DNA of 64,000 nucleotides from Sedimentisphaerales bacterium. GTDB lineage: Bacteria > Planctomycetota > Phycisphaerae > Sedimentisphaerales > SM23-30. The stretch is from assembly GCA_963666285.1 (NCBI GenBank), contig OY762711.1, one strand, 5' to 3'. Numbering within the stretch: position 1 is the first letter of the stretch; each line of letters starts with the position of its first letter. This document shows, piece by piece, positions 10,372 through 20,216 of this stretch. A model generated the notes under the pieces. The model ran no database searches, was not told the origin of the DNA, and worked only from the letters and a program-made list of their open reading frames with translations. Both the position numbers and the translations under genes were made by a program.

Positions 10372-13300
10372 ATGAAGCGGACTATCGATGAATTTACCAA
10401 TCTGTATTCTTTGAGTAAGACTTTGCGCTTTGAGCTTAAGCCAGTAGGTGAAACAGCGGAAAAGCTGGAAGAATTCAAAAATGAAGGATTAAAGACAATT
10501 GTCGAACAAGACAAAAATCGGGCAAAGGACTACAAGGAGATAAAAAAGATAATTGATAGCTATCATCGATATTTCATTGATGAAGTATTATCAGGAGAAA
10601 TATTAACTGCTGATGAGATTGTAGAAGCCTATAACCTGTACAGCAATGCCACTAAACCTGGGGCCGCAAAAGAGAAAAAAGAAGAATATGCAAAAACACA
10701 AGAGAAGTTAAGAAAGAAGATTTCCGAGAGGTTTTCTGCTGAGAGCAAGAAATACCATCTTTATAAAGGAGACTTTTCCAAGCTCATCAATATGCAAGGG
10801 TCCGGTAAAAATAAAACTAAAGGCAAATTATGGCACTGGCTAAAAGATAGACTTGATAGCGGAAAAATAACAAAAGAAGAATTTGATCAAGCTGACGAGT
10901 ATATAGCAGACTTTGATAAATTCACAACATACTTTGCTGGCTTTAATCAGAACAGGGATAATCTATATGTAGATAAGGACCAGTCAACTGCTATTGCCTA
11001 TCGCATAGTCCATGAGAATATGGCAAAGCATTTTGAGAATTGTAAGAGAATAAACAAAATTGAAATGGAAGAAAGATATTCAGAACTATCGGAATTACTT
11101 CGCTCTCGAAAAGAGATATTTAAGCCTGCTGAGTTTGTGAAATATCTCGGACAAAAAGGGATTGATATATATAACGAAGCAATCGGTCATAAGGCGGATG
11201 ATATAAATGCAAAAGGTATTAACCAGATAATTAATGAATACCGTCAGAAAAATAATATTAAACCGCGTGAACTGCCTGTAATGACGACATTATACAAGCA
11301 GATATTGAGTGATCGAGAAAACGGATTTGTGATTGATGAATTTTTGAGTGATAAAGAAGTATTTGAAGCTATTCAAGAAGTTAATAGAAGTTTAGTTGAT
11401 TCCGAGCTTGTTGAAAATATTATGAACTGTCTGGATGAATATATGCAAGCAGGCAGCCAAGTTGGAATGTACATAAAAAATGACCTTGCATTGACAGATA
11501 TTTCTCAAAAGTATTTCTGTGACTGGTCTTTAATTGGCAGGGCAATTAATGTTTATGCTGAAGAATCTTTAGGTCTTAATCTGGATAAGCGAGAAGCATT
11601 GAGTAAAGAAGATTTTTACTCAATAGAGTTTGTTCAAAAAACTGTTGATTATTACTATGATTCAATTAATATGCCAGATCAGAAAAAATATTTAGCGGAA
11701 TATTTCAGAGGATTTTCAGTTGATGGTAAATTGTTGAGTGATAGTTTTTGTGAAGCATATAAAGAAGTAGAAGCAGTATTAAAACAGGAAGAACTGAATA
11801 AAGACAGGCGGGTCCCCAAGGATGAAAAAGACAAAGGTGGAAAAGGATTTCAACAGATAGAGAAAATAAAGAAGTACCTGGACAGCGTGTTGGCAATTCA
11901 ACATTTTCTGAAACCACTATATATGATGAAAAGCGGCAAGATGATAGAGTTGGGAGAGAAAAACAGTGACTTTTATGACAGATTTAATCCGCTATATGAG
12001 AGTCTTTCAGACATTATCGGAGTATACAATAAAGTAAGGAATTATGTAACGAAAAAGCCCTACAAAACTGACAAATTTAAGATCAATTTTGAAAATAGCA
12101 CATTACTTGACGGTTGGGATGTTAATAAAGAAATTGCTAATAATAGCGTTTTATTATTCAAAGATAACAAATATTTCCTTGGAGTAATGAAAAAAGATTC
12201 TAACAATATGTTTAATTACAGACAGGAAGCAGATGATTCAAAAAACAAGTTGGAAGCTAAGAAAGCAATAGAGAAAAAGATAATAGCAACTGAATCTGAA
12301 GAATACTATGAAAAAATGGTTTACAAGCTTTTGCCAGATCCATCAAAAATGCTTCCAAAGGTATTTTTTAGTAAAAAGAACATCAATTATTATAGCCCTA
12401 CACAAGAAGTTTTGGAAATTCGAGAAAAAGGGTTATTTAAGAAGGCTGCAAACGACAAAAAATCAATGTATAAATGGATTGATTTCATGAAAGAATCTTT
12501 AGGGAGTCACCCTGAGTGGAATCAATATTTTGATTTCACTTTCACAAAAACTAAAGAATTTAGAGATAGTAGTGAGTTTTACAAAGAAGTTGCCGAACAG
12601 GGATATAGCCTAACATATGATAGAATCAAGAAATCATATATTGACGAACATGTTGCTAAGGGTAATTTATATCTATTTGAGATATACAATAAGGATATGT
12701 CGCCATACAGCAAGGGCAGGCCCAACCTCCATACAAGTTACTGGAAACTGTTATTTGCCCATGAAAACCTTAATGATCTTGTTATTAAATTAAATGGTCA
12801 AGCAGAAGTATTTTTCCGCCCACGATCGTTGAAAAAGAAAGAAACGGCAGTACACAAAGCAAATGAGGCAATAGAAAACAAGAACCCACTGAATGCCAAA
12901 AAGATTAGCAGATTTAACTATGATATAATAAAAGACAAAAGGTTCACACAAGATAAGTTTTTCTTTCACTGCCCTATCACGCTAAATTTCAAATCGGGTG
13001 GATTTGGCAAATTCAATGACAAAGTAATTGAGTTTTTGAGAAATAATCCAGATGTTTGTATTATTGGAATAGATAGAGGCGAACGTCATCTGCTGTATTA
13101 TACAGTTATAAATCAAAAAGGTGTAATCTTGGAACAAGGGAGTTTTAATACTATAACCAGCAATATGACAAGTGAAGGTAAGAAAGTCCCAATGACGACG
13201 GATTATCATAATCTGCTTGATAAAAAAGAGAAGGAGCGAGATGCTGCACGGAAAAGCTGGTCAGCAGTAGAGAATATAAAAGAACTCAAAAGCGGCTATT

Positions 13301-14244
13301 TGTCTCATGTAGTACACAAGCTGGCAACACTTATGGTTAAGCATAATGCTATAGTATGCCTGGAGGATCTGAATTTCGGGTTTAAACGCGGCAGGTTTAA
13401 ATTTGAAAAACAGGTATATCAGAAGTTTGAAAAAGCTCTTATAGATAAGTTGAATTACCTGGTATTTAAGGATAATAAACCGGAGGAAGCCGGACATTAT
13501 CTGAAAGCTTATCAGTTGACGGCTCCATTTGAGAGTTTTCAAAAGCTGGGAAAACAGAGCGGTTTTTTGTTTTATGTAACAAGTGACTATACATCAAAGA
13601 TTGATCCGGTGACAGGATTTGCCAATCGTATTAATACTAGGTACGAATCGGTCGAAAAGAGTTGTAAGCTTTTTGAGAAATTTGAGAGTATCCGGTATAG
13701 TCCAGAGAAGAATTATTTTGAATTTGTAATTGATTACTCACAACTGGAAGGAAGCGGGCTAGAGAAATGGACTATCTGTACGCACGGCAAGGAACGTTAC
13801 AGATATAACAGGGAAAAACAGAATTATGAATGTTATGACGTAACTTCAAACCTGAAAGATCTGTTTAGGTCAGAGCAAATAGAATATACAGCGGGAAAAG
13901 ATATAAGAGCCGACATTTTAGCTAGGAAAGAGAAGAAATATGCTGATTTCTTCAGGAAGTTACTATTCAACGTTTCATTAACAGTCCAATTGAGACATAC
14001 ATATAAAGTTAATAGCGAAGAGAAAGACTTTATTCTATCACCAGTAGCAAAAAATGGTAAGTTTTTTGACTCTCGTGAATACGAGAGTATAGAGAATTCG
14101 CAATTACCAATAAATGCAGATGCCAACGGAGCATATAATATAGCCAGGAAAGGTCTGCTGACATTATTAAAGCAAATTAATGAAGGAAATAAACCCTCAG
14201 CAATTAGGAATGCAGACTGGTTTGATTTTGTGCAGAAAAGATAA
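10372..14244 (+). CDS. cas12a: Type V-A CRISPR effector Cas12a (Cpf1)
   Basis: N-terminus FTNLYSLSKTLRFELKP; KLLPDPSKMLPKVFF; RuvC-I IGIDRGERHL, RuvC-II LEDLNFGFK, RuvC-III ADANGAYNIARKG; 1290 aa. Confidence 0.98.
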   Translation: MKRTIDEFTNLYSLSKTLRFELKPVGETAEKLEEFKNEGLKTIVEQDKNRAKDYKEIKKIIDSYHRYFIDEVLSGEILTADEIVEAYNLYSNATKPGAAKEKKEEYAKTQEKLRKKISERFSAESKKYHLYKGDFSKLINMQGSGKNKTKGKLWHWLKDRLDSGKITKEEFDQADEYIADFDKFTTYFAGFNQNRDNLYVDKDQSTAIAYRIVHENMAKHFENCKRINKIEMEERYSELSELLRSRKEIFKPAEFVKYLGQKGIDIYNEAIGHKADDINAKGINQIINEYRQKNNIKPRELPVMTTLYKQILSDRENGFVIDEFLSDKEVFEAIQEVNRSLVDSELVENIMNCLDEYMQAGSQVGMYIKNDLALTDISQKYFCDWSLIGRAINVYAEESLGLNLDKREALSKEDFYSIEFVQKTVDYYYDSINMPDQKKYLAEYFRGFSVDGKLLSDSFCEAYKEVEAVLKQEELNKDRRVPKDEKDKGGKGFQQIEKIKKYLDSVLAIQHFLKPLYMMKSGKMIELGEKNSDFYDRFNPLYESLSDIIGVYNKVRNYVTKKPYKTDKFKINFENSTLLDGWDVNKEIANNSVLLFKDNKYFLGVMKKDSNNMFNYRQEADDSKNKLEAKKAIEKKIIATESEEYYEKMVYKLLPDPSKMLPKVFFSKKNINYYSPTQEVLEIREKGLFKKAANDKKSMYKWIDFMKESLGSHPEWNQYFDFTFTKTKEFRDSSEFYKEVAEQGYSLTYDRIKKSYIDEHVAKGNLYLFEIYNKDMSPYSKGRPNLHTSYWKLLFAHENLNDLVIKLNGQAEVFFRPRSLKKKETAVHKANEAIENKNPLNAKKISRFNYDIIKDKRFTQDKFFFHCPITLNFKSGGFGKFNDKVIEFLRNNPDVCIIGIDRGERHLLYYTVINQKGVILEQGSFNTITSNMTSEGKKVPMTTDYHNLLDKKEKERDAARKSWSAVENIKELKSGYLSHVVHKLATLMVKHNAIVCLEDLNFGFKRGRFKFEKQVYQKFEKALIDKLNYLVFKDNKPEEAGHYLKAYQLTAPFESFQKLGKQSGFLFYVTSDYTSKIDPVTGFANRINTRYESVEKSCKLFEKFESIRYSPEKNYFEFVIDYSQLEGSGLEKWTICTHGKERYRYNREKQNYECYDVTSNLKDLFRSEQIEYTAGKDIRADILARKEKKYADFFRKLLFNVSLTVQLRHTYKVNSEEKDFILSPVAKNGKFFDSREYESIENSQLPINADANGAYNIARKGLLTLLKQINEGNKPSAIRNADWFDFVQKR

Positions 14245-14339: not shown

Positions 14340-14903
14340 ATGGAGAGCTATATACCCATATCATATCTGAATGATTTTATATTTTGTCCGAGGTCGATCT
14401 ATTTCCATCAGCTCCATGGCCGGTTAAGCACGAAATTGTACCATGATGTCGCCCAGACAGCCGGTCGTGCAGCTCATGAAGCAATAGACAATAAGAAATA
14501 TTCCACTCGCAAGAATATTTTGCAGGGTATAGAGGTATATTGCTCTCAATACAATATTGCCGGTAAGATCGATATTTTTGACATTAAAACCGGTTTACTG
14601 ACTGAGCGTAAGAAGCAGATCAAAGCAATTTACGACGGCTATGTGTTCCAGTTATATGCCCAGTATTTCGGTTTGACAGAGGCTGGCTATGCGGTGAAAA
14701 CCATTCGTTTTTACAGTCGTGATGATAACAAGGTATGGCCGGTAGAATTACCAGACAATAATCAAGAAATGTTTGCTAAATTTGAAGAAACAGTTCGGCA
14801 AATACACAATTATGACCTCAATAATTATCGTCAGACAAATATAAAAAAATGTGAGAACTGCATATATGAGCCATTATGCGACCAATCTTTAGCGTTCAGA
14901 TAA
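14340..14903 (+). CDS. cas4: Type V CRISPR-associated Cas4
   Basis: ISYLNDFIFCPRSIYFH, GKIDIFD..ERK, QLYAQY, C-terminal CxxCxxxxxC. Confidence 0.95.
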   Translation: MESYIPISYLNDFIFCPRSIYFHQLHGRLSTKLYHDVAQTAGRAAHEAIDNKKYSTRKNILQGIEVYCSQYNIAGKIDIFDIKTGLLTERKKQIKAIYDGYVFQLYAQYFGLTEAGYAVKTIRFYSRDDNKVWPVELPDNNQEMFAKFEETVRQIHNYDLNNYRQTNIKKCENCIYEPLCDQSLAFR

Positions 14904-14918
14904 TAGAAGGGTAATGTT

Positions 14919-15902
14919 ATGTTAAGCGCACCAGATTTCAAACAGAAGCAAATTATCTTTGCCATGTTAAGCCATGGTGAACACTTAAGCTTTAAAAATG
15001 ACAATGTAATAATAAAAGACAGTGAAGGGGCGATCAAGCATCAATCAACATGCTACAGGCTGTTTGCTCTATTGATAGTAGGTCATATAAGCATAACAAG
15101 CGGTTTACTACAGCGAGCCGAGAAATTTGGCTTTACAATAGTACTAATGACCCATACCTTACGAGTTTACGGATTGTGGTCTTGCGGAGCTGAAGGCAAT
15201 GTCTTGCTGCGGAAGAAACAATATGATTATGAAAACTTATCTATAGCAAAACATATAGTCAAGAATAAGATCTTTAATCAATTATCAGCACTAAAACGTA
15301 TTCGAGGTAAAACAGAATCGCAACAAGCAGGGATAACAGACCTGCAATCATATTTGGAGCGTCTGGAAGAAACAAAAGATTTTGATTTACAGGAAATACT
15401 CGGTATAGAAGGAACTGCCGGTCGGTCATATTTCAAGAACATCTTTTCGGATTATAACTGGCAAGGTCGCCGTCCACGAGTAAAGCATGATATGACTAAC
15501 TGCATGATGGACATAGGCTATACGCTACTTTTTAACATAATAGAAGCCTTGCTCAAGGTGTATGGTTTTGACTTATATCGAGGTGTATATCATCAGGAAT
15601 TTTATCAGAGGAAATCGCTGGTATGCGACCTGGTTGAGCCGTTCAGGCCTTTGATTGACTGGCAAATACGGAAGTCATACAATTTGGGCCAGGTAAAGGA
15701 AAAAGATTTTACTATACGCCAGAATCAATATTGCCTATACGGTAAATCTGCAGGCCCATATATTGTAAATCTGCTTGAGCCGCTAATAAAAGAGAAGCAG
15801 AATATATTTCTCTATGTTCAGGGTTATTACCGCAGTTTTATGAAGGGCAAGGAAGCAGAAGAATTTCCATTTTATGAAATGGAGGCAGGTAAATGCTTAT
15901 AG
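14919..15902 (+). CDS. cas1: Type V CRISPR-associated Cas1
   Basis: GIEGTAGRSYF, GVYHQEFYQRKSLVCDLVEPFR; lies between cas4 and cas2. Confidence 0.96.
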   Translation: MLSAPDFKQKQIIFAMLSHGEHLSFKNDNVIIKDSEGAIKHQSTCYRLFALLIVGHISITSGLLQRAEKFGFTIVLMTHTLRVYGLWSCGAEGNVLLRKKQYDYENLSIAKHIVKNKIFNQLSALKRIRGKTESQQAGITDLQSYLERLEETKDFDLQEILGIEGTAGRSYFKNIFSDYNWQGRRPRVKHDMTNCMMDIGYTLLFNIIEALLKVYGFDLYRGVYHQEFYQRKSLVCDLVEPFRPLIDWQIRKSYNLGQVKEKDFTIRQNQYCLYGKSAGPYIVNLLEPLIKEKQNIFLYVQGYYRSFMKGKEAEEFPFYEMEAGKCL

Positions 15903-16168
15903 TGTCATATGATATAAGTGACGACAAATTACGAACACGCTTTGCAAAATACTTGAAAAAGTTTGGATATAGATTACAATATTCGGTGTTCGAGGTGCGA
16001 AACAGTCCTCGCGTTCTAAACTGCATAGCAACTGAAATAGACAGTAATTTCGGTAAACAGTTCGAACAGAAAGACAGTGTAATAATATTTAACCTAAGCC
16101 AACAGTGCAAAAAGTACTGTTACGGTTATGCCCGAAATGACCAGGACGATTTGATAGTAATTGATTGA
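15893..16168 (+). CDS. cas2: CRISPR-associated Cas2
   Basis: MLIVSYDISDDKLR..G.RLQYSVFE. Confidence 0.96.
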   Translation: MLIVSYDISDDKLRTRFAKYLKKFGYRLQYSVFEVRNSPRVLNCIATEIDSNFGKQFEQKDSVIIFNLSQQCKKYCYGYARNDQDDLIVID

Positions 16169-16294
16169 AATGTAAACCCTGGTATTAATGGCCTGCGAAC
16201 CGTTAATATAGTTGAAAATATGCCGATTATAACGATTATATCTGGATTTGCCTGTAAACTTACACAATCTGTAATGTTTGTACGAAGAATAGCC
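16169..16294 (+). promoter_or_regulatory. CRISPR leader
   Basis: AT-rich non-coding segment between cas2 and the first repeat. Confidence 0.7.
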
Positions 16295-16894
16295 GTCTAG
16301 AAGACATATTAAATTTCTACTGTTGTAGATGTTTTAGAACCACAGATGGACACGGAGTCTAGAAGACATATTAAATTTCTACTGTTGTAGATTCGATTCC
16401 TTACCACCCGCAGAGCAAGTCTAGAAGACATATTAAATTTCTACTGTTGTAGATTACGATCAGCATTGGTTAAATCAGCAGGTCTAGAAGACATATTAAA
16501 TTTCTACTGTTGTAGATTTCTTACTTGGTGTTATCTCTCAAATAGGTCTAGAAGACATATTAAATTTCTACTGTTGTAGATCTAAGTCGCATGCTCTGTG
16601 AATTACAGTCTAGAAGACATATTAAATTTCTACTGTTGTAGATCTGATATCATGGACGGATTATAAGCTTGTCTAGAAGACATATTAAATTTCTACTGTT
16701 GTAGATATAATAATTAGTATCTCTTTTGCTTTGGTCTAGAAGACATATTAAATTTCTACTGTTGTAGATTTACAATATCTTTTGCCTCAATATCTGTCTA
16801 GAAGACATATTAAATTTCTACTGTTGTAGATCGAACGTATACCCCCCTGTCTTCAGGGGTCTAGAAGACATATTAAATTTCTACTGTTGTAGAT
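16295..16894 (+). CRISPR. Type V-A array, leader-proximal part: 10 repeats, 9 intact spacers of 26-28 bp
   Basis: Repeat GTCTAGAAGACATATTAAATTTCTACTGTTGTAGAT (36 bp) starting at 16295, 16357, 16419, 16482, 16546, 16608, 16671, 16734, 16796, 16859; canonical Cas12a 3' handle AATTTCTACTGTTGTAGAT. Confidence 0.99.
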
Positions 16895-16980
16895 ATAGTT
16901 TCGTGCCTTTCGTGTTTTTCTATGAAGCCAGAATGCAACATTAATTTTCTAATTTTATTCATTTTTGCTATAATTCCTTT

Positions 16981-17070
16981 ATCTTGCAAAGGATAGGGCT
17001 CTGCTGAGGAGCAACCCGAGCGTTGCAAGTTGTCGAGAAGCCGGGGCGGTTTTACACCGCCTCGTTTTTT
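16981..17070 (+). ncRNA. Small structured RNA resembling the Acido-Lenti-1 motif, inside the IS end
   Basis: TGCTATAAT extended -10 at 16966-16974; stem CTTGCAA/TTGCAAG with inner hairpin; linker GTCGAGAAGCC; terminator hairpin 17042-17064 plus T6. Family resemblance is from memory of the motif. Confidence 0.5.
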
Positions 17071-17074
17071 GCTT

Positions 17075-17310
17075 TTTGACCTTATGCGATAAACCTATTT
17101 AAAACAATTTTCGCGTAGCGAATCATTATTTACCTGATTGTTTCATCTTTCTATCCGGAGTGTCCGAGGCTGTATTTTACGCCATGGTTCCATTATATAT
17201 ATTGCGATACGGCTTAATTTTCGTGTCAGGTTCAAAACCCAAATGCACGACCAAGGTTCCGTATCGATTTCAATCGGGAAAAATCATAGGTAATATTTTA
17301 TCTTTTACTT
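17075..17310 (-). ncRNA. Candidate bridge RNA / seekRNA of the IS1111-type element (boundaries approximate)
   Basis: 8-bp stem CGATACGG (17205-17212)/CCGTATCG (17259-17266) enclosing TTTTCGTG and CACGA, which match opposite strands of the insertion site. Confidence 0.65.
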
Positions 17311-17319
17311 ATATTGGTA

Positions 17320-18366
17320 TCAAACACTTTGCAACTCGGGCATCTGCCAACTTGTCCCATCTCGCATCATCGCCCACAATCGTACGAACAACCGTCGGGC
17401 TGTAGCTACTATCGCTATTTTTGCACGAGTTTTACTTCCCCTCTTTATTCTTTCGTATGTTTCTTTTATCCATGGATTCCAACGCAAACCCAGCCAGCAA
17501 ACCTCAACAAGTAATGCTCGCAATAACCTATTGCCATATTTACTTATCCGCCCATGACGGTCTGTATTACCTGATTGGTACTGACGCGGTGTCATACCAA
17601 TATAGCTGCCAACTTGTTTGCAATTCTTAAATCTATGTGGATCATCAATATAAGCTGCAACTGCCTCTGCCAGACGTGGGCCAACTCCGGGAACAGTCTG
17701 TAATAGTTTTACTTTTTCATCAGTACTATTTAACTCTTCCAGTTTATCTTCAACTACTTGCAAAGCGTCTGTTAATTGTTCCAGTAATATAAGCTCGCTC
17801 CATAGATTGCCTTTCCAGAGCTCATCTGGTTTAACTTTATCCATTGGCATAGCCATACTTCTTAACTGTTCCAGATTCTGCTTAGACCAGCACTTTCTGC
17901 CTGACGGCAACGAATACGCCTGGGCATTTAATAAAGAACGAATAGTATTTTTTACCTGAGTTATCCGTTCTGTAAGGCTCTGGCGATAATTAATTAAAGA
18001 TCGTTTCTCGCGAATTTCCTTTTTAGGAACATAGACAGTTGATAAATCTCCTAAAGCAGCACGCTTGGCCAGCCAAAATGCATCCTTTTTATCTGTTTTC
18101 TTCTTCAATTTTCTGCCAGACCATTCGCCGGTATTAGTATTTGCCACTTCATATTTTAATTCCAGGGTGTCAAAAAGGTCACAAATCCAGCCTATGATAT
18201 CACAAGCCTCAAATACAATAAGATCAGCAGGGTGAGATACTGCCAGGTCATGAAGCTCTTGAGGGTTAGTCTTAAACGACTTATATGTAGCCTTACAGCT
18301 TTTTACCTCATAAAAACAAACTACACTCTTGAATTTTCCTAAATCAATTGACATAATAGTCTTCAT
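17320..18366 (-). CDS. IS110-family DEDD recombinase/transposase
   Basis: IDLGK (D), FEAC (E), KTDKKDA (D,D), TVPGVGP, QSG catalytic serine, ISKYGNRLLR; 348 aa and intact. Confidence 0.96.
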   Translation of the reverse strand: MKTIMSIDLGKFKSVVCFYEVKSCKATYKSFKTNPQELHDLAVSHPADLIVFEACDIIGWICDLFDTLELKYEVANTNTGEWSGRKLKKKTDKKDAFWLAKRAALGDLSTVYVPKKEIREKRSLINYRQSLTERITQVKNTIRSLLNAQAYSLPSGRKCWSKQNLEQLRSMAMPMDKVKPDELWKGNLWSELILLEQLTDALQVVEDKLEELNSTDEKVKLLQTVPGVGPRLAEAVAAYIDDPHRFKNCKQVGSYIGMTPRQYQSGNTDRHGRISKYGNRLLRALLVEVCWLGLRWNPWIKETYERIKRGSKTRAKIAIVATARRLFVRLWAMMRDGTSWQMPELQSV

Positions 18367-18494
18367 AGCCAGAATACTCCGTATAAAATAGGTTAAATAT
18401 TTGAGCGTCCCTGTGACAGCTCGTGCTAAAATTATTGTGTATTATAACACAAGCCATGCTACAGGAATATTCTGGCTTTCATTGTATTTTCGTG

Positions 18495-18718
18495 GTCTAG
18501 AAGACATATTAAATTTCTACTGTTGTAGATTCACATCATCGCTTATTGATGAAGATGGTCTAGAAGACATATTAAATTTCTACTGTTGTAGATTTGCCTT
18601 CTTTCTTTTAAGTTTTATAGTCTAGAAGACATATTAAATTTCTACTGTTGTAGATTAAAAAAGGTGACGTGATCGATTATGGGTCTAGAAGACATATTAA
18701 ATTTCTACTGTTGTAGAT
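18495..18718 (+). CRISPR. Type V-A array, distal part: 4 repeats, 3 spacers
   Basis: Same 36-bp repeat at 18495, 18558, 18620, 18683. Confidence 0.99.
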
Positions 18719-18816
18719 TTGGCTCCGCCCTTAGAACATACGAGCAGTTGAACAGTAAAAAGAGGAGAGAGGCGGGAAGAAATTATAAATTATAAATGTT
18801 GAATTATGAAAAAAAA

Positions 18817-18867
18817 TCTCATCTTTTATCGGATTCCATATAAGGGAGAACCAGATAAAAGATGAGA
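18817..18867. terminator. Perfect 14-bp inverted repeat between the convergent CRISPR array and lysA; possible bidirectional terminator
   Basis: TCTCATCTTTTATC (18817-18830) and GATAAAAGATGAGA (18854-18867), flanked by A runs. Confidence 0.5.
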
Positions 18868-18938
18868 AAAGTTATATGTAAAGATCGCATTAAATCCACC
18901 ATTAAACTAGTGGACCGGCAGCCCTGAGACAAGGCTAT

Positions 18939-20216
18939 TTATTTTTCGTGGGCGGTGAGGTCCTGCCAGGTTTCTCGTTTGCGGATGACCTTGACGTCTG
19001 AGCCGTCGACGAGAATTTCTGCGGCACGCGGCCTGGAGTTGTACTGGCTGGCCATGACGAAACCGTAGGCACCGGCGGTGAAGACGGCGAGCAGGTCGCC
19101 GCGTTTGACCGGCGGCATGAGCCTGTCCTGGGCGAGGAAGTCGCTGGACTCGCAGACCGGACCAACGACGTCGGTTTTGACAGTGCCGGGCAGAGCCATG
19201 ACATCGTCACGCTGTTTGGGCAGGAAGTCCGTGGTGACGGAAACGGGCCAGATGAAATGGAACGCTTCGTATAATGCCGGGCGGATGAGGTCGTTCATCG
19301 CCCCGTCGATAATGGCGAAGTTCTTTTCGCCGCTGGTCTTGGTATAGTTGACCTGAGTGACGAGAATACCTGCGTTGCCCATGATGGATCTGCCGGGCTC
19401 GAGTATGAGCTTGAGGCCGGTATCCTTTAGCAGCGGTACGATAGCCGCGGCGTAGTCTGCCGGGGTTGGAGACTGGCCGGTGATATAGTCGCTGGCATAG
19501 CCGCCGCCGATATCGAGTGTGTCGATCTCGAAGCCCTTGGCACGGAGAGCTTCGATCATGGTAAGTGTCTTTTTGATGGCCTGCACGTATGGGTCCGGTG
19601 AATAAATCGGTGAGCCGATGTGCAGGTGGATGCCGGCGATATGAATATTTTCGTTGCGGCCGTAGGTTTCGAAAACGTTAATGGCACGTTCGATATCGAC
19701 GCCGAATTTTGATTCCTTCTTGCCGGTGGTGGTGTATCTGTGGGTTTTGGGGTCGACGTCGGGGTTGACCCGAAGAGCACATTTGACCTTTTTGCCCATC
19801 TGTGATGCGATATCGATGATATTTTCCAGCTCGGCCTCCGATTCGATATTGAAATAGCCGATGCCCTGCTCGATGGCGTACCTGATCTCGGGGTCAGTCT
19901 TGCCGACGCCGGCGTAAACTACCTTTGAAGGGTCGGCACCGGCCTCAACGACGCGGAACAGCTCGCCGCCGCTGACGACGTCGAATGTTTCGCCAAGCCG
20001 GGCTACCATTTTGAGGATATTTATATTACTGCAAACCTTTACAGAATAACAGATTGTGGTATCGATACCCTTGAAGGCCTGCTGAAAATTCTTAATGTGG
20101 GATTTGATAGTGTTGGCACTGTAAATGTATAGCGGTGTGCCATGTTCGGCTGCGATCTGCTCAACCGGCACATCTTCGCAAAACAGCTTGTTGTCTTTGT
20201 ACTGGAAAAGGTCCAT
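18939..20216 (-). CDS. lysA: Diaminopimelate decarboxylase
   Basis: YSVK PLP lysine, DVVSGGEL, HLHIGS, EPGR, VGPVCESSD, GAYGFVMASQYNSRPR. Confidence 0.95.
   Translation of the reverse strand: MDLFQYKDNKLFCEDVPVEQIAAEHGTPLYIYSANTIKSHIKNFQQAFKGIDTTICYSVKVCSNINILKMVARLGETFDVVSGGELFRVVEAGADPSKVVYAGVGKTDPEIRYAIEQGIGYFNIESEAELENIIDIASQMGKKVKCALRVNPDVDPKTHRYTTTGKKESKFGVDIERAINVFETYGRNENIHIAGIHLHIGSPIYSPDPYVQAIKKTLTMIEALRAKGFEIDTLDIGGGYASDYITGQSPTPADYAAAIVPLLKDTGLKLILEPGRSIMGNAGILVTQVNYTKTSGEKNFAIIDGAMNDLIRPALYEAFHFIWPVSVTTDFLPKQRDDVMALPGTVKTDVVGPVCESSDFLAQDRLMPPVKRGDLLAVFTAGAYGFVMASQYNSRPRAAEILVDGSDVKVIRKRETWQDLTAHEK

Follow-up and report, generated by a model that had tools for sequence, protein, structure and literature searches.

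The window analysed here (the whole stretch of DNA, 64,000 nt) contained a type V-A CRISPR-Cas locus, identified as such by a Cas12a with RuvC, REC, PI, and Nuc domains together with cas4-cas1-cas2 and an array of 36-nt repeats (Table 1). One spacer of the array was split by an insertion sequence: two perfect repeats at 16859-16894 and 18495-18530 bracketed the two spacer parts, and the gap between these repeats measured 1600 nt. Because the insertion adds 1570 bp, the spacer was computed to have been about 30 nt long beforehand, slightly above the 26-28 nt of its neighbours. Its own sequence was a triple TTTCGTG repeat in diverged form. Of the spacer, the unbroken 22 nt at 16895-16916 gave no exact match in viral contigs and none in metagenome contigs, and 400 further genomes of this order contained no match to it at up to two mismatches. 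The last repeat of the array was the same as the other 14, a degenerate terminal repeat being absent.

The gene carried by the inserted element, tnp, encoded a protein matching PF01548 (E 1.8e-13) and PF02371 (E 1.5e-26), and it scored 214 bits against NCBIfam NF033542, "IS110 family RNA-guided transposase" (cut-off 140). Its C-terminal domain matched the solved structures of the IS621 and ISCro4 recombinases (E 3.4e-14 for IS621). Elements of the IS1111 group are described as having a longer non-coding region downstream of tnp, subterminal inverted repeats of 7-17 bp, and a G..P....S/T-G motif (PMC11187229). In our element, 400 nt of non-coding DNA lay 3' of tnp (17319-16920) versus 120 nt 5' of it (18486-18367), subterminal inverted repeats (ATGAAAGCCAGAAT versus ATTCTGGCTT-CAT) conserved in relatives were located 3-5 nt inside the ends, and the motif was present in the translation as GMTPRQYQSG. 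Judged by the inverted repeats and the distribution of non-coding DNA, the element was of IS1111 type. Each of its ends was uncertain by about 3 nt, because two or three of the flanking A residues were either duplicated or the element's own.

Full-length matches of the transposase to annotated IS110-family genes were obtained with plasmids only. The best plasmid-borne match was 42% identical, the listed Klebsiella and Pantoea plasmid copies about 29%; relatives in genome contigs and in metagenome contigs reached only 28-32% and 27-31%, respectively. The same genome held a second, unrelated IS110-family gene (C1:1589823-1590821, 36% identity).

Table 1. Features of the CRISPR-Cas locus and of the inserted element (positions in the window)
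Feature	Position	Strand	Basis or description
cas12a	10372-14244	+	Pfam
cas4	14340-14903	+	Pfam
cas1	14919-15902	+	Pfam
cas2	15893-16168	+	Pfam
Type V-A CRISPR array	16295-18718	+	15 identical 36-nt repeats, 13 intact spacers (26-28 nt), 1 interrupted spacer
Interrupted spacer, promoter-proximal part, 25 nt	16895-16919	+	Right target flank in the element's orientation
Interrupted spacer, distal part, 8 nt	18487-18494	+	Left target flank in the element's orientation
IS1111-type (IS110 family) insertion sequence, minimal extent	16920-18486	-	TACAATG... to ...CATAG in tnp sense
Transposase/recombinase gene (tnp), 348 aa	17320-18366	-	PF01548 (DEDD), PF02371, NF033542
Left subterminal inverted repeat ATGAAAGCCAGAAT	18469-18482	-	Kept as CTATGAAAGCCAG in relatives
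Right subterminal inverted repeat ATTCTGGCTTCAT	16922-16934	-	By inspection, matches 18469-18482 in inverted orientation, 1-nt indel
Promoter-like site TTGATA-17-TAAAAT just upstream of predicted RNA	17295-17323	-	Consensus scan 10/12; regional site total not above shuffles; lead only
Predicted seekRNA/bridge RNA core, ~140 nt	17136-17275	-	Closing helix P1 GATTG 17275-17271/CAATC 17140-17136; architecture common to 13 elements
Predicted target-binding arm	17205-17266	-	Outer stem 17266-17259 (CGATACGG)/17212-17205 (CCGTATCG), inner helix 17255-17252/17216-17213, hairpin 17241-17237/17231-17227
Predicted right-target guide TCGTGCATTT	17241-17250	-	Complementary to top strand AAATTCACGA of natural site, 9/10
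Predicted left-target guide CACGAAAATT	17216-17225	-	Equals top strand of natural empty site, 10/10; would pair with bottom strand
AAAATACA (TGTATTTT on top strand)	17171-17178	-	Loop of variable hairpin P4; unsupported donor candidate
ATAGAAA (TTTCTAT on top strand), probable left-donor guide	17148-17154	-	Multiloop strand after P4; identical to element right end CATAGAAA
Short terminator-like hairpin after predicted RNA	17110-17122	-	Same stem in the G098 relative
Intrinsic-terminator-like hairpin (strong) in element	17042-17074	+	9 pairs, 7 G-C, then T-run TTTTTTGCTT

Genomic copies of the element and its natural target

The genome contained nine copies of the element at 99-100% identity. 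In Logan assembly contigs of three DNA runs, the element was collapsed into one contig of about 229x versus 26x for the flank, i.e. about 9 times, a depth that does not count as independent support because these runs may stem from the source sample; no joint across the element was found in these contigs. Read in the orientation of the element, every copy started ...CACGAAAA/TACAATGAAAGCCAGAAT and ended ATTCTGGCTTCATAG/AAA..., the slash marking the junction. Seven of the nine insertions shared one dispersed repeat and one register, reading gtcaaCCACGAAAA-IS-A(A)TTCACGAAAGAACACGAAAAAAAA..., and were thus site-specific; one further copy resided in a variant of this repeat and one in the spacer. 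Unoccupied copies of the repeat read CCACGAAAATTCACGAAAG, and five exact empty 15-mers CACGAAAATTCACGA were left in the genome where 0.016 were expected. On these grounds, the natural target is located at the first junction within a triple CACGAAA repeat, CCACGAAAATTCACGA. Subtraction of the empty from the occupied site left the element plus 3 A, 1570 bp in total, and there was no long target duplication. From the junctions alone, the crossover core dinucleotide was AA or AT.

The first-pass annotation had matched the target-binding loop to the interrupted spacer. The spacer did match the two predicted guides (9/10 for the left and 8/10 for the right guide, all mismatches falling at two positions beside the A-run), but the cognate target is the genomic repeat and the spacer is an imperfect look-alike of it, a near-match with two central mismatches. 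The insertion into the spacer is therefore a near-cognate hit. The predicted RNA was identical in all nine copies, with no difference between 17278 and 17036, so the spacer copy had not been retargeted. Compared with most other copies, the array copy had one A more (17299) and differed at 17279, 17302, 17335, and 17338, just upstream of the predicted RNA and inside the promoter-like site.

The target repeat was embedded in a mosaic of other short intergenic repeats. Copies of the element were clustered (C1:714490-718130 and C1:909028-918317), two of them being only 450 bp apart, and occupied and empty target repeats alternated within about 10 kb. In the closest relative, G098 (loci L014/L036), the target likewise lay at the first junction in a repeat of three heptamers, in which GTGAAG occurred three times with a period of about 10 nt and the heptamer sequence was unlike ours. 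It seems that the guides have tracked a repeat family specific to the host.

A predicted guide RNA downstream of the transposase gene

The minus strand from 17275 to 17136 very probably encodes the guide RNA (seekRNA or bridge RNA) of the element, as judged from sequence comparison. Its predicted parts were the closing helix P1, a target arm consisting of an 8-bp stem and a 4-bp helix, a variable hairpin P4, and single-stranded multiloop segments. The outer stem of the arm was perfect over its 8 bp and enclosed TCGTG (17250-17246), an inner hairpin (17241-17227), and CACGAAAA (17225-17218). The stem, the two loop segments, the inner hairpin, and the segments TTTCTAT and TGTATTTT had all been located correctly by the first-pass annotation. 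In addition, a 4-bp helix formed by CTTG and TAAG directly closed the target loop. Against the natural empty site, each guide extended over 10 nt; the annotation had been right about the presence of two guides in the loop and had drawn both too short. At this site, the footprints of the guides overlapped on AAATT. The right guide contained a central C-T mismatch even there.

Within this one sequence, the evidence for the guides was weak, barely above chance. The exact complementarity of the right guide amounted to 5 nt, and such a complement was present in 4997 of 5000 shuffles that preserved the dinucleotides of the non-coding region; 84 of these 5000 contained a same-sense match of at least 10 nt to the natural target. 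Matches of at least 8 nt to the left junction were found in 757 of 3000 shuffles, and matches of at least 7 nt to the right junction in 1935 of 3000. The case therefore rests on comparison with relatives, and this comparison was decisive for reading the loop strands as predicted guides.

Relatives were collected from 200 other genomes of the same order, 11 of which encoded transposases 45-66% identical to ours, and 12 elements were aligned with ours, giving a comparison set of 13 elements from 12 genomes. Guides were read from fixed alignment columns, and flanks were placed from inverted-repeat anchors. The scaffold was common to all 13 elements, whereas the loop strands varied, each matching the flanks of its own element. 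On average, the left guide agreed at 8.85 of 10 positions with the flank of its own element and at 5.49 with the flanks of the others; for the right guide, the means were 8.5 of 10 and 5.01, respectively. None of 100,000 permutations was as good in either case. The test of the right guide was run without G171, whose contig stops at the junction. When the set was reduced to eight distinct targets, 3 (left) and 5 (right) of 100,000 permutations reached the observed total. All these permutation counts overstate independence, since the relatives are phylogenetically clustered. G098 illustrated the covariation: it kept the scaffold (CGATAYGG...AAGCCGTATCG), and both guides and both flanks were changed together, the loop strands being TTCACTTGAT and CGTGAAGATT and the site CCGTGAAGAT-IS-(A/T)GTGAAG. 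Such natural retargeting among relatives suggests that the RNA would be reprogrammable.

The helices beside the guides covaried. Across the 13 elements, 98.3% of the cells in the arm helices were paired and 9 of 14 pairs had changed on both sides (RNAalifold and pair counts); not one of 500 shuffles gave pairing as good, and the pairing collapsed when the partners were slid by one column or more. Because MAFFT misaligned P1 and the outer stem between subclades, these two helices were judged per sequence and not by column counts. P1 read GATTG/CAATC in seven elements, GGTTG/CAATC in one, and GATCG/CGATC in five. The unconstrained minimum-energy fold of our RNA paired the two guides with each other and closed the loop, since the guides are mutually complementary, which in turn follows from the target being a direct repeat. 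For the comparison of the 13 elements, the loop was therefore held open, and with the guides so constrained P1 and the outer stem were recovered in 13 of 13 folds. No Rfam family was found at E<=1 in 16000-19000. Three G-U pairs were invariant in all 13 elements (window positions 17252/17216, 17241/17227, and 17192/17156; alignment columns 27/67, 38/56, and 94/141). They bound the guide strands and the base of P4 and are candidates for recognition by the protein.

A covariance model of the target arm, R1, was run on 37 loci outside its training set and returned 11 new loops, some of them in elements with proteins just 31-38% identical to ours. Guides were read at constant positions of the model. 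In eight of nine testable elements, the reverse complement of the predicted right guide matched the right junction, with scores of 10, 10, 9, 9, 9, 8, and 8 of 10 and, for L052, 7/7 before the contig end; in L061 it failed at the right junction (4/10). In a blind search downstream of the loop, spanning at most 460 nt (132 and 127 nt at two loci ending with the contig), 7 of the 11 new loops had the best match of their reverse-complemented right guide precisely at the right junction. The left guide matched the left junction at 8 or 9 of 10 positions in five of six testable elements and at 6/10 in L052. No placement was obtained for L029 and for the right guide of L059. At E<=0.01, R1 detected nothing in 10 of 15 class-level loci encoding relatives; without filters, 3 of these 10 gave weak hits at the expected place.

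On the donor side, the multiloop segment ATAGAAA following P4 was compared with the right ends of the elements. Segment and right end agreed at 87 of 91 positions over the 13 elements, a value reached by 4 of 100,000 permutations. The two changed together, ATAGGAG occurring with CATAGGAG and ATAGAGGAT with CATAGAGGAT, and the segment followed the right end in three lineages (AAG, GAG, AGG, AAA). It is thus a probable left-donor guide, and its position fits the remark that the donor-binding nucleotides of IS1111 elements sit in the multiloop (PMC11208160). The second donor guide put forward by the first-pass annotation, TGTATTTT (i.e. AAAATACA in the RNA), had to be dropped: it was without counterpart in most relatives and, as the shuffles given above for the left junction show, a match of its length is expected by chance. 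For the right donor, just a candidate of 3-5 nt was seen by eye in the strand between the arm and P4, namely AGTT versus AACT, GAT versus ATC in G098, and TAT versus ACA in our element.

Alternative explanations and proposed mode of insertion

Three other explanations were weighed. The stem-loop might be a common structured element in the 3' untranslated region of the transposase mRNA, with a role in stability or termination, and its likeness to the target a product of chance in A/T-rich, low-complexity sequence. The near-chance matches within the single sequence and the simple extended hairpin obtained as unconstrained fold would both agree with this. However, a terminator loop would not vary together with the DNA adjoining the element, whereas the guides tracked their targets in the 13 elements as well as in those outside the training set, which renders this explanation extremely improbable. 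Guide-target covariation alone cannot distinguish RNA from DNA, and the matching segments could accordingly act as DNA, i.e. as an internal copy of the target halves that is recognized by the recombinase or pairs DNA-to-DNA during synapsis. This point was addressed by the helices. They were kept through G-U pairs, the three invariant ones and 12 further cells; on the opposite strand, and likewise in a cruciform of DNA, these pairs would turn into A-C mismatches. The invariant G-U pairs therefore fix the strand and favour RNA. Moreover, the architecture equals that of the RNAs described as co-purifying with IS1111-type transposases (PMC11187229). A function of the segments as DNA is thus very unlikely.

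The third explanation concerns the array copy, which might have arrived by homologous recombination or another rearrangement and not by guide-directed insertion. In its favour, the spacer of about 30 nt would have been longer than the 13 intact spacers, and its two central positions mismatch both guides. Against this stands the junction register, which was exactly that of the eight other sites. The flanks in the spacer were unlike those of every other copy, so that there was no homology tract at the spacer, and they still fitted the guides at 9/10 and 8/10. We give such a rearrangement hardly any weight.

The reading of the locus as an IS1111-type element with a guide RNA of its own is thus retained. 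It had been anticipated by the first-pass annotation, which proposed such an RNA downstream of tnp with one loop segment for each target strand, and it was supported by the compensatory helix changes, the predictions of the covariance model, and the covariation of loop and target across homologous elements. We infer from these data that the RNA is produced, binds the protein, and directs insertion. In the predicted RNA, P1 would bound a multiloop, one arm of which would be a stem around an internal loop split by a small hairpin. The two loop strands would pair with opposite strands of CCACGAAAATTCACGA, and the ATAGAAA segment of the multiloop would probably pair with the right end of the element itself. 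The complex of transposase and RNA may hold the circularised element through this match and through inverted repeats recognized by the protein, and strand exchange would take place within the central A/T run, where the guide footprints overlap. In this manner, the circularised element would be inserted into the first junction of the triple CACGAAA repeat scattered in the genome, and the spacer, which holds a diverged repeat differing at two central positions, would have been struck as a near-cognate site.

Relation to known systems and consequences for the array

Systems of this type became known in 2024, and the prediction of bridge RNAs covered 93% of the IS1111 elements (PMC11208160). The closest described counterparts are the IS1111-family seekRNA elements ISEc11 and ISXne4 (Siddiquee et al. 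2024, PMC11187229). As described there, they share with our element the long non-coding region 3' of tnp, the subterminal inverted repeats, and a transposase of 330-350 aa with the G..P....SG motif. The seekRNAs of this group carry the complement of the top strand 5' and that of the bottom strand 3', overlapping in the target, and both guide order and overlap are the same in the predicted RNA here. Relatives keep the scaffold and swap the guides (natural reprogramming) in both cases. Our transposase is only distantly related to characterised ones, as far as the 42% identity to the best plasmid-borne match indicates. In contrast to the targets of ISEc11/ISXne4-type elements, ours lies at the first junction within a triple heptamer repeat, which makes the guides mutually complementary. 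Expression, protein binding, and function of our RNA are predictions from the sequence.

The bridge RNA of IS621 (Durrant et al. 2024, PMC11208160) is described with the same strand logic, and in it, as here, a second region of the RNA matches the donor end. It differs in that it is located 5' of the gene, whereas our RNA lies 3' of tnp with the guide order reversed; in addition, the match of our transposase to the IS621 structure was confined to the C-terminal domain and our donor match to the left-donor side. ISPpu9, another member of the IS110 family, resembles our element in that multiple copies reside in a dispersed intergenic repeat and a small-RNA gene lies downstream of the transposase (PMC12288879). 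The repeat described for ISPpu9 is a palindromic REP (PMC12288879), whereas ours is a triple direct heptamer within a repeat mosaic, with one copy of the element in a CRISPR spacer. Judged from the listings of full-text literature searches, guide-directed insertion of an IS1111 element into a spacer had no earlier description. As far as these listings show, the new features are the element itself together with its clade, in which the guides can be read off clearly, the mutual complementarity that the target imposes on the guides, and a guide-consistent insertion in a Cas12a spacer.

RNA-guided IS110/IS1111 recombinases are under development as compact genome-writing tools. The clade offers a natural panel of at least 24 orthologous elements, in each of which two predicted 10-nt guides can be read at fixed positions bounded by invariant G-U pairs, and this panel spans at least eight different natural targets. 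The sites used with the same RNA and differing at two crossover-adjacent positions, i.e. the spacer and the L003 variant site, show mismatches that were tolerated in nature. Although its two guides are complementary and can pair with one another, the element has attained nine copies.

Our main interpretation, that a small element carrying its own predicted guide RNA landed in a spacer of a Cas12a array, holds. The element would have been inserted there because the spacer resembles the genomic repeat that it normally targets. A target-like spacer can thus be struck by such an element, which leaves the known mechanism unchanged. Relief from autoimmunity through the insertion was considered and found to be unsupported: the best match of the computed 30-nt spacer within its own genome was 23/26 and lacked the PAM-proximal 4 nt. 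The strong terminator-like hairpin at 17042-17074 has the orientation of the CRISPR array, opposite to that of tnp, and it could stop pre-crRNA transcription ahead of the four distal spacers. At the equivalent place, the G098 relative possesses a G+C-rich stem preceded by an A-run.

It is conceivable, though unlikely, that the hit on the array was systematic and not accidental. Spacers acquired from foreign DNA bearing the target repeat would then serve as landing pads, the clade would preferentially erase this memory, and the terminator-like hairpin would cut off the four distal spacers from the leader promoter, so that the element would act as a sequence-addressed silencer for part of the array. 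The CRISPR memory lost in this way would be that against DNA holding the future homes of the elements themselves.

Two further observations were made on the relatives. At their right ends, most carried a TTGACA hexamer facing outward, 9-10 nt inside the right inverted repeat, the corresponding hexamer of our element being TTGCAT; the hexamer of the relatives might be a junction promoter in the circular form. At locus L023 (genome G068), upstream of tnp, a solo target together with the first ~15 nt of a left end (GGAATAATTAAGAAACTATGAAAGCCAG) stood directly before the complete element. This solo copy may be a footprint or an aborted event.
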